Of a stretch of 64,000 bases of DNA, positions 3,228 through 48,443 are shown in pieces. The first letter of the stretch is position 1, and each line of letters starts with the position of its first letter. A program made the position numbers and the translations under genes. This stretch comes from Escherichia phage Ec_Makalu_001. The stretch lies in the sequence record MN894885.1, one strand, 5' to 3'. A model generated the notes under the pieces. That model searched no databases. It was not told the origin of the DNA and worked only from the letters and a program-made list of their open reading frames with translations.

Positions 3228-3391
3228 ACTTCACCTCATACATTCATAAACACAACAACGAATAGGACAGTAACAGTTATTAAAGCCATTTTCAACCCCA
3301 TATTCATAATATTTTCTTCGCCTCACGATGACAGTAGCATGTCGATGCGTGCCATTATAGGCATCTAAATCGCTCTGTCAAGCACAAAAAC

Positions 3392-4968: not shown

Positions 4969-5694
4969 TTACTTGAGTGTGTGGAATTGGCTATGTTTAG
5001 TCTCTCGCACCTTGACAGACCCATCGCGTTTGATATAATAGATCAGTGACTTGAGGGTGTCGTGTACATACGCGTGCGGGAAACGCTCTGGATACTTCTT
5101 CCAATCTGGAGTATTAACGATCCAGTCGAAAATCCACCACGGGCAGGAGTAGTAACCACGACCGCCACCGATCAAGCAAATGGTCGGACGGAAACCAGTA
5201 AGATCACAAAATGAATCAGTGTCATGTGCAGGAGAACGATGCTCTGCTTCGTCAGAGAAAATGTTTGCTACCGGAGATTCCACTTTAACTTCCGGTGCTT
5301 CTTCAACATCTGACTTAACTTCTTCGACCACTGGTTCAACTGCTGGAGATTCTTCTTTTGTTTCTTCAATGACGATCTCAGGTTCTTTCATTGCTTCAAC
5401 CAGAGACGGATCAACTTCGTCGAATACCACTTTATCATCTGCGGTATCTGCTGCCAGAATAAGGTCGTTAATACTGGTTCCTTCTGCCGGAGTTTCTTCT
5501 TCCATTTCGGAAGCCAGTTTAGTTAATTCGGTTTCTACGAACTCGATCATGTTCTCTAGTGATAAAGTCTTTTTGACCTTGATATCAAATTGTTTTGCAT
5601 AGTCTGCTAATTCTGTTTTAGCTGTTTTCTGTGCTTCTTTGTCGTCGGACGCCGCAATAGCGCGGAGTTCTTCGAAATATTCTTTATCAAACAT
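4969..5694 (-). CDS. Acidic protein, possibly Inh-like (prohead protease inhibitor); assignment by synteny only
   Basis: 241 aa ORF at the hoc-uvsW position where T4 has inh; long acidic E/D-rich central region; C-terminal Cys/Trp-rich segment. Confidence 0.35.
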   Translation of the reverse strand: MFDKEYFEELRAIAASDDKEAQKTAKTELADYAKQFDIKVKKTLSLENMIEFVETELTKLASEMEEETPAEGTSINDLILAADTADDKVVFDEVDPSLVEAMKEPEIVIEETKEESPAVEPVVEEVKSDVEEAPEVKVESPVANIFSDEAEHRSPAHDTDSFCDLTGFRPTICLIGGGRGYYSCPWWIFDWIVNTPDWKKYPERFPHAYVHDTLKSLIYYIKRDGSVKVRETKHSQFHTLK

Positions 5695-43090: not shown

Positions 43091-43135
43091 TGTTAATCCT
43101 CCGTTGTTTCGATGAGTTCATTATACACTATTGGG

Positions 43136-44314
43136 TTACGCTGTCAACTCTTTTTCAAAAGATTTTACGATATACATGATAGTGCTCAATTCAGACGGCG
43201 CTACTGTTTCGGTGTAGCCATCCGGCATATCTTCTTTCGAGATATAGGAAGTCTTGCCTTTCATCGCTTCCTTGATCTTGTTCTCTAATTCTAAGATCTT
43301 TTGACCGTCTTGTAAAGTCAATTCATAAAAGATCTCGTGACCGAACTTTGAAACACGAGATTGGTTTCTCATGCGCTCATGTGTTTCTTTGTTTGTTATT
43401 CCAAATTTCACGCCAACAAAGGAATCATTGTTGGTTAATTTCTGTATATAAAGAGTTCCTGTCTTTAATGCCTGATAACCATGCTTAGAACACAACGGGC
43501 AGCGTGTTCCGCGATTAACAAAATTATCAATAGTTACATCCCATTCATGGTTACGTTCGCATGTCAGAAGTATTCTTGTTAATGCACCTTTCCACTTTCC
43601 TGAAATCCCAATAAATTTTAGTCTGTTGGTTTCGCATATTTTTTCAATTTGTTTTAATCGGTCACTTTTTGTTATTGGTGCTGTTCCGCTACATTTGCGA
43701 CACCGACGACCTAGTTTGAACTTATCATAACTTTGTTCGTAAATGTGATTATTAGGACACTCAAATTTAAGTTTAGTTTTTGTTCCTCTCCATTCCCCAA
43801 TTATACCCAAAAATTTATAATCTCCTTTATTTTCATTTATATAAGATAAGGAATCTTCTTTATCATGCATCTTGCCCCCGTTACATAAAGGACATCTTGT
43901 TTTTTGATGAATGAAATCTGTATATGTTGGTTGGTATGTGTGTCCGTTTGTACAGTTCATAATGAGTCTTGTTCTGCTATTTTTATACTCCCCACCAACA
44001 AAACCAACAAATACATCGTTTGTTTCTTGTTTTATTCTTTCTATCACATTGTTTGGGTTTAATCTTTGAGAATCAACCACACATTTCTTACACGAAACTT
44101 TTTTCCTGATATTTGCTAGAGTTGATGTGTATTCATGCTTGTTATTACATAATATAAGAGCTTTTGTTTTGAGACCAGACCATTCTCCAACAAACCCCAT
44201 GAAAGAATAACCAACTTCCAAACATGAATTTTTTACAACATTTTCCCAATAGAAGGGAGTTTTCGTGTTTCCTTTTATTTCTATACGAATCTCATGTGCT
44301 TGACGTACTAACAT
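43136..44314 (-). CDS. Four-repeat zinc-ribbon protein with C-terminal GIY-YIG-like region
   Basis: Four ~45-aa repeats of pattern F(V/I)G(F/I)xGxWxGxxTxLxxxCxxxHxYxxxxxxFxxxxxC(x2)C; C-terminal LYIQKL...VKFGIT...R...E loosely GIY-YIG-like; start taken at the ATG at 44314 after promoter and RBS. Confidence 0.45.
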   Translation of the reverse strand: MLVRQAHEIRIEIKGNTKTPFYWENVVKNSCLEVGYSFMGFVGEWSGLKTKALILCNNKHEYTSTLANIRKKVSCKKCVVDSQRLNPNNVIERIKQETNDVFVGFVGGEYKNSRTRLIMNCTNGHTYQPTYTDFIHQKTRCPLCNGGKMHDKEDSLSYINENKGDYKFLGIIGEWRGTKTKLKFECPNNHIYEQSYDKFKLGRRCRKCSGTAPITKSDRLKQIEKICETNRLKFIGISGKWKGALTRILLTCERNHEWDVTIDNFVNRGTRCPLCSKHGYQALKTGTLYIQKLTNNDSFVGVKFGITNKETHERMRNQSRVSKFGHEIFYELTLQDGQKILELENKIKEAMKGKTSYISKEDMPDGYTETVAPSELSTIMYIVKSFEKELTA

Positions 44315-44398
44315 ATTTTTATCCTCCGTTGTTTCGATGTGTGTATTATACATTACCACATCAGCACGTCAACACCTTTTTCATAAAATTTTAGGCAA

Positions 44399-44423
44399 TA
44401 AAAAAGCCTCCCCGAAGGGAGGC
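44399..44423 (-). terminator. Rho-independent terminator after gene 32 (minus strand)
   Basis: Hairpin gcctccc-ttcg-gggaggc followed by U-run. Confidence 0.6.
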
Positions 44424-44434
44424 TTTAAAATTCA

Positions 44435-45382: not shown

Positions 45383-45436
45383 TATTCCTTCTTTTGATTA
45401 ATTTACGAGACTATTATACAGATTTAAATTTACTTG

Positions 45437-46117
45437 TCAACTATTTGTTTCGGCTTTTAATTGAGATATTTCTTTACACTCTTTAACGACTTTAACAAAT
45501 AATGCTCTTGCTTTTGCGGCGTCAATAACAAGTAGTTTCTTGTACGCCTTCATTTTAACACTATAAGTTTGCCAAATCAAGTCTTTGGCTACCTTGTCGT
45601 GTTCGTCGATTATATTTAGAAAGCTATCTAACAACATAAACGACTCAAACGATATAATCCGATTTTGCAGTAGTTTAAAGATACCGCTAGTTTCGGTTGC
45701 GGGATTGTATGTAATTAGCTCTTTAAGAGTAACCCCGCGTTTCTCGGAGAAGTATACCAGACTTTTAATGTCATCGTCAAATCGTGTTGCCGCATCGGTT
45801 ATCTTTCCTATGTATTCCATATAAAAGCCGTATGCGTCAACATCAGTGATTTCACCTACCCATGCATCGGTATTAGCTACCAGATTGCTTAGGAATAGGA
45901 AGTATAATTCTCTTAGATTGTACTTTTCCGCTAATTTCGCGAAATAATACTTATCTCTGCGTTTATTGAATGCGGCATCAGATAACCGCATCCTCCAATT
46001 GTATTTTACGCAATCATAACGCCCGTTCATATGAGCTTTCATCATGCAATATAACATATACACAGATTTAGCATTAATTCGCATATCTGGATCTGGAGGA
46101 AGACGGTTTCTGATCAT
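45437..46117 (-). CDS. 59: Helicase loader gp59
   Basis: 226 aa; KSVYxLYxMxKxHMNGxYD, SNLVAN, IISFExFxLLDSFLNIIDxHD as T4 gp59. Confidence 0.88.
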   Translation of the reverse strand: MIRNRLPPDPDMRINAKSVYMLYCMMKAHMNGRYDCVKYNWRMRLSDAAFNKRRDKYYFAKLAEKYNLRELYFLFLSNLVANTDAWVGEITDVDAYGFYMEYIGKITDAATRFDDDIKSLVYFSEKRGVTLKELITYNPATETSGIFKLLQNRIISFESFMLLDSFLNIIDEHDKVAKDLIWQTYSVKMKAYKKLLVIDAAKARALFVKVVKECKEISQLKAETNS

Positions 46118-46126
46118 ACATACCCC

Positions 46127-46396
46127 TTAAATATCGAGAGTGTTGGTCGGTTCGTCGATCACTCCCTTCCTGAGCGTTCTATTTACTATACATTCTTGTG
46201 TGATCTTGTCAATAATGGACACCGGAATATACTTCTGATAGTGACCATATTCGATAGAGTTTTCCTCTACAAACTGCGTTGTCGCTTCAAGATAAGTCAA
46301 TCCCTCTTCAACAACCAGTTTTTCGATTGCAAGACCGTTTGCTGTTTTGTTCGCGGCTTTTACCGCATGTTCATTAAGCATTGAACACCCGATCAT
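46127..46396 (-). CDS. 33: Late transcription co-activator gp33
   Basis: 89 aa; YLEATTxFxEENSI and C-terminal NTLD as T4 gp33. Confidence 0.75.
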   Translation of the reverse strand: MIGCSMLNEHAVKAANKTANGLAIEKLVVEEGLTYLEATTQFVEENSIEYGHYQKYIPVSIIDKITQECIVNRTLRKGVIDEPTNTLDI

Positions 46397-46649
46397 AGAG
46401 TTCTACCGCTTCGTCGCGTTCTGCTTCGAAGGTTTCGCGCTGTTGCTGGTGATATAGTTTAAACAGAATACCCCACATTTTACCATCTACGCCTAATTCT
46501 TCTTTAGCACGCTGTTTGATCTCTTTGATCTTATCGCCGTATGCTTCTTGAATGGTTTTCTGATCGCTGGCTTCTTTAATCAGTTGTGCCAGGGTATTTC
46601 CGTGCACTGCTTCGTCAAATACTACTTTTTCTTTTTTCTGTTCAGTCAT
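46374..46649 (-). CDS. dsbA: dsDNA-binding protein DsbA
   Basis: 91 aa; ELGVDGKM...LYH...FEAE...VELYDxVF as T4 DsbA. Confidence 0.8.
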   Translation of the reverse strand: MTEQKKEKVVFDEAVHGNTLAQLIKEASDQKTIQEAYGDKIKEIKQRAKEELGVDGKMWGILFKLYHQQQRETFEAERDEAVELYDRVFNA

Positions 46650-46653
46650 AATA

Positions 46654-47253
46654 TTAACCCTCTTTAGTCATTAATTGAAAACCACGTTCAGCTTTTGAGA
46701 TTTCGCTAGGACGTAAATCATCATCTACATATTCTAGCATCATTTCTCTGATAATGTCAAGTGCTTTTTCATCACCTGATTTTAACTCGAACTCAAGTTC
46801 ATAATGAGCAGTGTCGCCCAATCCTTCGCCTACTTTGCCATAATAGAAAGTGTCTTTGCACATTTCCACTATACCACAACCCATATCTAGAGTCAATGAC
46901 TTGCGATATGTCATTACTTGCATTATTGTAGTGATATAGTCTGAGTTTACCCCTAGACTATCAATAAAATGGACGAACTCATCCCAATTTGAAAATGTCA
47001 TTTCCTCGCGGTTGAATAGTCCAGATTCATTATCACCCATTTTGACCATGATCTCTGATTTTCTACAGTCAAGTCGTGCATAAATTCCTTTTTGACGTAG
47101 CGCATGGTCTTCGGTATCATAATAAAATTCGTGTTTTAATATGTTATCTCGATCTACGATATTATAACCGTCATACATTGCCACCCACAAATCACAGATG
47201 GTTTCGACGCCAATTTGTGAGTGTGCATAGTATTTTAACTCAAGTTCTTTCAT
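46654..47253 (-). CDS. CYTH-domain (triphosphate tunnel metalloenzyme-like) protein
   Basis: 199 aa; N-terminal ExExK signature (MKELELKY) and C-terminal ExExE-like HYELEFELK, CYTH-like spacing; inserted between dsbA and rnh. Confidence 0.5.
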   Translation of the reverse strand: MKELELKYYAHSQIGVETICDLWVAMYDGYNIVDRDNILKHEFYYDTEDHALRQKGIYARLDCRKSEIMVKMGDNESGLFNREEMTFSNWDEFVHFIDSLGVNSDYITTIMQVMTYRKSLTLDMGCGIVEMCKDTFYYGKVGEGLGDTAHYELEFELKSGDEKALDIIREMMLEYVDDDLRPSEISKAERGFQLMTKEG

Positions 47254-47263
47254 GTGTCAACCC

Positions 47264-48211
47264 TTAGAACTCACCAATTTTCTGCAACATTTTAACTAGC
47301 GCATTTGTTACAAAATAGTTATAAATTTTACCGCGTGGTGCTGGTTTAGATTTTTCCCATGCTAACAAAATTTCATATTCGATGTTATCAGGAATAAATT
47401 CAAAATCAATAAGTTCGCGGTTTTCGTCAAAGCGTCGTGCTTCTTCCTCTGTCATCAAAGACTTTGGATCTTCGGCATCGAAAATTTGCTCTAACCATTT
47501 GGTTGCAATTGGTTTAGCTCGTTCCCCTTCCAGCCGTGAGATAATGAAATCACTACGGCACTTGATAGAAGCTACACCGTCTTTTGCGTCACCCTTAACA
47601 CATTTTACCATAAGGTCTTTGTAAGGACTACCATATTTGCATTTCTTCCATGCTTTCTGTACTGGTGCCCACTGTTTCACATTTTTGTATTTGTGCAACT
47701 GTGTGTAGTCACCATCGCCGGAGTTGATTAGCACCTGGCGACCTTCTACAGAAAACTTTTTAGTTAACACAGCGATTATATCATCTGCCTCAACTTTGTC
47801 AACCTTAATAACGTGATAAGGCATGTTCTCTTTAAACTCTTCGGTGATCTTATTGATTGCAGCAAAGATCATCTCCCAATCACGCGGATCTGCGTCTCGC
47901 TTTTCCTTACGGTTACGCTTGTAATAAGGTGCGATATCACGTCGCCAGTAACCTTTGCTAGAGTCAAAGGCAAGTACCGTAATCGGGTATTGCTCTTTGA
48001 ATTTTGTCATATTATAACGCATGGTGTCAAGGATAAGATGACGAATCATACCTTCGCTAATCGGATCTTCCGGCTTAAATGTATGAGAGATAGTAGCAAT
48101 CATAAGCTGCGACATATCAATCAAATGCACACCTTCCGGCAGTTTATCTTCTGGATCGTCGAAGAAATCATTAAGTGTAGCGGTAGTTTTTGTAAACGGG
48201 TTATACGTCAT
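47264..48211 (-). CDS. rnh: RNase H / 5'-3' exonuclease (FEN family)
   Basis: 315 aa; YWRRDxAxYYKxNR, EADDxIAVL, SxDGDxTQLHKYxNVKQW, PPRGKIYxYF as T4 RNase H. Confidence 0.88.
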   Translation of the reverse strand: MTYNPFTKTTATLNDFFDDPEDKLPEGVHLIDMSQLMIATISHTFKPEDPISEGMIRHLILDTMRYNMTKFKEQYPITVLAFDSSKGYWRRDIAPYYKRNRKEKRDADPRDWEMIFAAINKITEEFKENMPYHVIKVDKVEADDIIAVLTKKFSVEGRQVLINSGDGDYTQLHKYKNVKQWAPVQKAWKKCKYGSPYKDLMVKCVKGDAKDGVASIKCRSDFIISRLEGERAKPIATKWLEQIFDAEDPKSLMTEEEARRFDENRELIDFEFIPDNIEYEILLAWEKSKPAPRGKIYNYFVTNALVKMLQKIGEF

Positions 48212-48213
48212 AA

Positions 48214-48426
48214 TTAAGTTCTCTCCACTCTCACAACAACATATTCGCCAAACGAGTTAGATACTTCACGGTCATACCCGTATTTCTCCATAACTCGCAG
48301 AATTGCATTGTTTAATTCAGCACGGAAATAATTGTAATCCTTATCTGGGATTCTGTCAACTATCCATTTTGCACCGTCTGACAAATCAACTTTAACCATA
48401 ATATCATCCTCTTTTGTTTCTATCAA
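48214..48426 (-). CDS. Hypothetical small protein (70 aa)
   Basis: ORF coupled to the rnh start. Confidence 0.4.
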   Translation of the reverse strand: MIETKEDDIMVKVDLSDGAKWIVDRIPDKDYNYFRAELNNAILRVMEKYGYDREVSNSFGEYVVVRVERT

Positions 48427-48435
48427 GCCTCATTT

Positions 48436-48443
48436 TATAAATA
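48436..48443 (+). promoter_or_regulatory. T4-type late promoter motif TATAAATA upstream of gene 34
   Basis: Exact TATAAATA ~29 bp upstream of the gene 34 ATG, followed by AAGGAG RBS. Confidence 0.45.

Follow-up and report, generated by a model that had tools for sequence, protein, structure and literature searches.

A stand-alone YgiF-type triphosphate tunnel protein, predicted to be a phosphohydrolase, is encoded between rnh and dsbA in Krischvirus phages

What is the role of a CYTH-domain protein encoded between rnh and dsbA in a T4-type coliphage? The question is raised by a 199-aa open reading frame (ORF) of Escherichia phage Ec_Makalu_001 (sequence record MN894885.1), which lies on the minus strand at positions 46654..47253 (ATG start, TAA stop) of a 64,000-nucleotide stretch of DNA, the whole of which is referred to here as the window. 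The source genome is a Krischvirus, i.e. an RB49/Phi1/JSE-like T4-type coliphage, and the gene is the homologue of RB49ORF244c (RB49p245). At a probability that we put at roughly 0.6, sequence and predicted structure indicate that this ORF encodes a stand-alone, catalytically competent YgiF-type triphosphate tunnel metalloenzyme (TTM) lacking a CHAD domain, most likely a Mg2+/Mn2+-dependent phosphohydrolase; competence is predicted because all key residues of YgiF and AtTTM3 have invariant equivalents in the phage protein. The assignment to the CYTH family is not itself new, having been public since 2003-2006: RB49ORF244c was listed with a match to the CYTH domain at E=0.0026 (Nolan et al., 2006; PMC1524935), and the RefSeq record of RB49 carries the note "similar to ... 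ygiF". The paper describing the Phi1/RB49 cassette makes no mention of the CYTH locus.

The initial annotation had read the ORF as a CYTH triphosphate tunnel enzyme from the motifs ELELK (residues 3-7) and ELEFELK (residues 152-158), and both motifs are indeed read at these places. The family assignment is borne out by the Pfam CYTH model (PF01928), which matches the protein at E=1.4e-7 with 32 bits against a curated cut-off of 23.2. A PHROGs search placed it in family 14893, which carries no function label, and an NCBIfam scan of the protein gave no matches. Comparison with cellular CYTH proteins using hhalign returned a probability of 99.9%. An AlphaFold2 model built from 18 family members (mean predicted local distance difference test score 93, predicted template modelling (TM) score 0.86) shows eight long beta-strands and a C-terminal helix (residues 187-195), the eight-strand tunnel fold that the CYTH reading had called for, and the top matches of this model in the PDB (Foldseek) are all triphosphate tunnel proteins, the best being E. 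coli YgiF (E=3.3e-12, TM 0.76). A profile of the phage family and its nearest cellular homologues likewise matches YgiF at E=1.4e-51, making YgiF the closest neighbour by both sequence and structure. With phmmer, 7zhm, the TriTu immunity protein, was matched weakly (E=0.03); this was taken as chance, as the match was lost with the family profile and found no support in the fold. The fold, the family and the set of catalytic residues are established; from these and from the genomic setting we infer the activity, expression timing, substrate and biological role discussed below.

In YgiF, the catalytic metal is bound by E4, E6 and E162 and the substrate-bound metal by E160, the catalytic arginine, which is invariant, is R56, and K69 functions in substrate binding; mutagenesis or structures of YgiF and AtTTM3 show that these residues matter (PMC4641920). 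A 152-sequence MAFFT alignment, a 92-sequence alignment and a profile-profile alignment with hhalign all place phage E3, E5, E156, E154, R60 and K71 opposite YgiF E4, E6, E162, E160, R56 and K69, respectively. The ExExK hallmark, ELELK (codons 3-7, 47233..47247, minus strand), aligns with E4/E6/K8 of YgiF and is invariant in all alleles, E3 and E5 corresponding to ligands of metal site 2 and K7 to a substrate-binding residue (roles after PMC4641920). At the other end of the protein, the acidic patch of strand beta-8, ELEFELK (codons 152-158, 46780..46800, minus strand), aligns E152/E154/E156 with YgiF E158/E160/E162, which assigns E154 to metal 1 and E156 to metal 2. The two-metal catalytic residues are all present (E3/E5/K7, R60, K71, R82/E84, R117 and E152/E154/E156) and are invariant among phage alleles of only 33-57% identity. 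D134, S186, K187, R190 and G191 are likewise invariant among these alleles; the last four belong to the start of the C-terminal plug helix, SKAERG (codons 186-191, 46681..46698, minus strand), and are conserved in 151 homologues. The protein ends four residues past this helix. Seven of the eight strands are conserved on the face that bears the catalytic residues, and variability is found on the opposite strand face, in two surface helices (residues 13-29 and 90-99) and in two loops, which would be the pattern expected of a tunnel under purifying selection.

In the mechanism that we propose, the triphosphate group would bind to the basic half of the eight-stranded tunnel (K7, R60, K71, R82, R117 and K187/R190). 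The substrate and E154 would hold metal 1, and E3, E5 and E156 would hold metal 2, which would activate a water molecule for attack on the terminal phosphate.

The phage protein departs from its relatives at the RxR motif, here YARLD (codons 58-62, 47068..47082, minus strand), in which R60 is, by the three alignments above, the counterpart of YgiF R56. The second arginine of the motif is Arg in 142 of 151 homologues and Asp (D62) in the phage protein, and the position two residues ahead of the first arginine, which is small in all other groups, is occupied by Y58. YgiF has R58, G54 and T67 where the phage protein has D62, Y58 and M69. The Asp of this YxRxD motif is common to the wider phage clade, with Asn in one member, and the Tyr is confined to Krischvirus and its nearest relative. 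Y58 occupies the position of the Trp of thiamine triphosphatase (ThTPase; PDB 5a64, 3bhd) that stacks on the thiazole ring (PMC4641920, PMC8233210); ThTPase, however, has the full W/YxRxR motif and is only ~15% identical to the phage protein, and the most divergent phage relatives lack the aromatic residue, P0044 having V and P0045 having I. Because Y58 replaces a small residue and D62 replaces the second arginine, we infer that the natural substrate would be a triphosphate bearing an organic, possibly aromatic group (nucleotide-like or thiamine-triphosphate-like) in preference to bare tripolyphosphate.

Several points weigh against this reading. With D62, a charge within the tunnel is reversed, which could reduce activity or steer it elsewhere. 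The inward orientation of the conserved residues follows from strand periodicity, not from the coordinates of the model. An alignment using a hidden Markov model of the phage family only sets R60 opposite YgiF R58, a register shift of two that implies loss of the catalytic arginine; this register was rejected as the weaker one, since the three other alignments, all larger, disagree with it. The gene is also not essential in culture if a frameshift in one isolate, described below, is genuine. Finally, as far as the literature found goes, the gene has been named only in the 2006 domain table (PMC1524935), and the physiological role is unclear even for YgiF (PMC3440374).

The initial annotation had further proposed that the gene is an accessory insertion in a conserved block of replication genes and that T4 has no gene between dsbA and rnh. 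The latter is confirmed in the T4 genome (NC_000866), in which just 8 bp, and no gene, separate rnh from dsbA, and the slot is likewise empty in a Dhakavirus, Serratia phage 4S, Klebsiella phage TNG87, an Aeromonas Biquartavirus and a Slopekvirus. In a presence/absence survey, tblastn returned 58 phage records with the CYTH gene, every one of them a Krischvirus (58/58), and this set is identical to that of the records with the surrounding block; DsbA was found in 1420 T4-like phage records. Close relatives of the protein number only 43 among 5.8 billion clustered proteins, and a profile search of 1.84 billion representatives gave six matches at E<=1e-10. The three nearest relatives outside Krischvirus (51%, 41% and 33% identity) are encoded on metagenomic contigs directly upstream of dsbA and gene 33, with rnh also visible upstream of the CYTH gene on two of the three; the contexts of P0044 and P0045 were obtained from exact-match contig look-ups, and IMG/VR scans with these two distant relatives gave no matches. 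Because relatives of 33-51% identity occupy the same slot, the CYTH gene is a long-standing occupant specific to the lineage and not a recent insertion. The proposal of an accessory insertion therefore stands as far as the slot is empty in T4, but the gene is not sporadic, being fixed in Krischvirus and present in the three distant relatives. In Acinetobacter phage AM101 (Lazarusvirus), an unrelated 76-aa hypothetical ORF sits in the rnh/dsbA slot (L013 1921-2151), and T4-like lineages seem able to carry different cargo at this junction.

Residence in a stable slot is combined with rapid change of the gene itself. Across the 3.1 kb around the CYTH gene, identity reaches 99.2% with Escherichia phage Ec_Makalu_003 and is 95-99% with almost all of the 57 other Krischvirus records. 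Compared with RB49 and Skers, the CYTH protein shows 84% and 57% identity, respectively, while its neighbours show 97-100%, the exception being a small ORF upstream of rnh (92% vs Skers). Among the distant metagenomic relatives, the neighbouring DsbA and gp33 retain 69-81% identity, compared with 33-51% for the CYTH protein. Synonymous divergence (dS) over codons 1-150 is 0.46 against RB49 and saturated, at about 3, against Skers. Codons 151-199, which form the 3' third (46654..46803, minus strand) and are near-identical in all alleles, have a dS of 0.11-0.20, and the flanking genes one of 0.08-0.30. Because dS is high in codons 1-150 and low in codons 151-199 and in the flanks, these values indicate replacement of alleles by recombination, with a putative breakpoint inside the gene at about codon 150. 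The ratio of nonsynonymous to synonymous divergence (dN/dS) is 0.25-0.29 for the gene overall, and the gene is therefore under purifying selection. In phage vB_EcoM_G2494 (L005 1501-2096), the copy is split into two annotated ORFs by a 1-nt deletion in the I-Y-A-R codons and bears several unique substitutions; unless this reflects a sequencing error, the copy is a pseudogene. The CYTH gene is thus a fast-evolving accessory gene that at least one isolate can apparently spare.

Separately, homing endonuclease genes are found between genes 59 and 32 in related genomes, an HNH gene in Skers (L002 6802-7398) and in G2494 and SegG in T4 (L003 2410-3042); the window has no homing endonuclease gene at this position. 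Homing endonucleases at this site may contribute to local recombination that swaps alleles.

This pattern of evolution bears on a reading, close to the immune-interference guess of the initial annotation, in which the enzyme acts in counter-defence. Here the same hydrolysis would serve to remove a host signal or by-product that bears a triphosphate, such as alarmones of the pppGpp/pppApp type, linear ppp-oligonucleotide immune messengers, a signalling deoxynucleoside triphosphate (dNTP) or tripolyphosphate of the kind released by dGTPase-type defence enzymes, and the rapid diversification of the surface would reflect an arms race. We consider this unlikely, though it fares best among the alternatives. 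In its favour, no other gene of a block that is otherwise 97-100% identical comes close to the CYTH gene in divergence, and a whole allele has been replaced with a breakpoint inside the gene; the protein surface varies while the tunnel face is conserved; and the gene is specific to its lineage and can apparently be spared by one isolate (G2494). E. coli Dgt is known to split tripolyphosphate off dGTP (Kornberg 1958, listed in PMC9478638), but removal of tripolyphosphate would not restore dGTP. A scan of the protein with PADLOC models gave no match, a literature search combining CYTH with anti-phage or anti-defence terms found no link of CYTH proteins to phage counter-defence, dN/dS is below 1, and fast evolution is common in non-essential phage genes whatever their function. 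Slightly less probable still is the specific form of this idea in which a hydrolase retuned by the change of xxRxR to YxRxD would degrade a defence or stress nucleotide triphosphate of the host, or the tripolyphosphate left by defence enzymes that deplete dNTPs, with the surface diversifying and whole alleles being exchanged among phages since host immunity senses or inhibits the enzyme. If true, this would be the first phage counter-defence protein of the CYTH family.

A narrower alternative, that the protein is a specific inorganic triphosphatase or short-chain polyphosphatase like YgiF, cleaning up metabolites during infection, appears to us improbable. YgiF, the closest solved relative, is a relatively specific tripolyphosphatase responsible for a minor share of the total cellular activity (PMC3440374), and the metal and phosphate ligands of the phage protein are complete. 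Against this, the change of Arg to Asp, the gain of Tyr and the change of YgiF T67 to Met remove the charge complementarity for a bare polyanion, and most tripolyphosphatase activity is already supplied by the host pyrophosphatase (PMC3440374). YgiF is moreover a CYTH-CHAD protein of 433 aa (PDB 5a60/5a61), a type of tripolyphosphatase that forms cluster 1 in PMC8233210, whereas a Pfam scan of the 199-aa phage protein detected CYTH only and no CHAD domain, which binds polyphosphate. Unlike YgiF, the phage protein is virus-encoded and fast-evolving, and it is YgiF-like in the tunnel only.

Less credible again is an RNA 5'-triphosphatase that would take the gamma-phosphate off 5'-triphosphate RNA, whether on primers made by primase, adjacent to the substrates of RNase H, or at the ends of host or phage mRNAs, and so speed processing or decay. 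Cet1-type enzymes have the same fold and two-metal chemistry, the gene directly follows rnh, whose product removes RNA primers, and viral TTMs in BFVD are mostly capping triphosphatases. Such viral TTMs, which comprise Cet1-type capping RNA triphosphatases of giant viruses and poxviruses and scattered CYTH proteins of jumbo phages, resemble the phage protein in being virus-encoded. However, the latter has no capping-domain fusion and matches them only distantly in structure (TM 0.4-0.55); a Pfam scan gave no match to the Cet1-like mRNA_triPase model (PF02940), and the closest fold match lies elsewhere, in YgiF. Adjacency in T4-type genomes is weak evidence for a common function, and other T4-like phages manage without a CYTH gene. 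RB49-type phages are not known to cap their mRNAs. CYTH triphosphatases of jumbo phages have been noted as possible enzymes degrading nucleoside triphosphates (PMC7824862). RB49 uses unmodified cytosine, so there is no obvious call for an enzyme that would exclude nucleotides in the manner of a dCTPase.

The remaining alternative, raised by the initial annotation and attached as an 'adenylate cyclase' label to the gene in three GenBank records (phages KMB43, AV108 and PHB13), is a class IV, CyaB-like adenylate cyclase that would raise cyclic AMP in the infected cell; we regard it as very improbable. The likeness to the CyaB-like cyclases of Yersinia pestis (2fjt/3n10) and Aeromonas consists of the CYTH fold and ExExK, and the protein fails all three hallmarks of the class (Vogt et al., PMC8233210). 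These are HF four residues ahead of ExExK (HFxxxxExExK), replacement of the first RxR arginine by a small residue and of the second ExE glutamate by Ala. In the phage protein, ExExK begins at residue 3, directly after M-K, which makes the HFxxxxExExK extension impossible, R60 is kept, and E156 is kept and invariant. The label is accordingly unsupported.

The phosphohydrolase proposed here would probably be made early, alongside the replication genes rnh, dsbA, 33 and 59. Its gene lies in a tightly packed, co-directional run on the minus strand that comprises a small ORF (62-70 aa), rnh, the CYTH gene, dsbA, gene 33, gene 59 and gene 32. The upstream neighbour rnh (47264..48211, minus strand), for a T4-type RNase H/5'-3' exonuclease, matches Pfam RNaseH_C at E=2.6e-37 and also 5_3_exonuc_N; the downstream neighbour dsbA (46374..46649, minus strand), for the double-stranded DNA-binding protein of late transcription, matches Pfam Phage_DsbA at E=5.4e-22. 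The gap between rnh and the CYTH gene is 10 bp, and an AAGGG Shine-Dalgarno-like sequence overlaps the rnh stop codon (47254..47266, minus strand); the record of Ec_Makalu_003 annotates a ribosome-binding site ahead of the CYTH gene. From the CYTH stop codon to the start of dsbA is 4 bp.

Inside rnh, ~520 nt upstream of the CYTH start, is a perfect sigma-70 consensus, TTGACA-N16-TATAAT, with a TG extension (47775..47802, minus strand). It is conserved in Makalu, RB49, Skers and G2494 and in the 81%-identical metagenomic relative L006. Six such perfect sites occur in the 64-kb window compared with 0.01 expected by chance: 2783-2810, 3354-3381, 43120-43147, 45413-45440 and 47775-47802 on the minus strand and 5012-5039 on the plus strand. 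The site at 45413-45440 matches the early promoter that RB49 annotates ahead of gene 32. We take the site at 47775-47802 as a candidate early promoter for CYTH-dsbA-33-59, and early co-expression of the CYTH gene with replication genes appears likely because of the tight co-directional packing with rnh and dsbA and the conserved perfect sigma-70 site. The T4-type late promoter box TATAAATA was not found upstream of the CYTH gene, the nearest copy serving gene 34, and a literature search for Krischvirus expression data found nothing relevant. A further sigma-70-like site at 47260-47232 was rejected as the CYTH promoter, as it overlaps the start codon and transcription would begin inside the ORF.

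Other features of the region were also recorded. The late promoter box TATAAATA of gene 34 is at 48436-48443 on the plus strand, 29 nt ahead of the start codon (48472). The small ORF of 62-70 aa directly 5' of rnh (48214-48426, minus strand) is kept across Krischvirus and has no Pfam match; T4 has no ORF at this position, and the metagenomic relative L006 has one of 85 aa, known by position alone. This small ORF is a second lineage-specific gene flanking rnh. Just past gene 32, a strong terminator-like hairpin (44403-44426, minus strand; 10-bp stem with 6 GC pairs, followed by a T-run) coincides with a terminator annotated in Ec_Makalu_003. Downstream of gene 32, a 407-aa ORF (43136-44359, minus strand) contains four tandem CapR homology domains (PF21817, E=1.3e-29) and a treble-clef zinc finger; its homologues are labelled 'endonuclease' in RB49 and 'GIY-YIG nuclease' in Skers, and it is probably a mobile gene of the homing-endonuclease type.

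RB49-like coliphages are widely isolated for phage therapy. If the prediction of a competent tunnel phosphohydrolase is true, these phages make an early triphosphate-hydrolysing enzyme that is absent from T4 and most relatives. The analysis corrects the 'adenylate cyclase' label that is spreading through phage records and singles out Y58, R60, D62, E154 and E156 as informative residues. The identity of the substrate could reveal a small molecule that is important in infection and could provide a physiological context for enzymes of the YgiF type.
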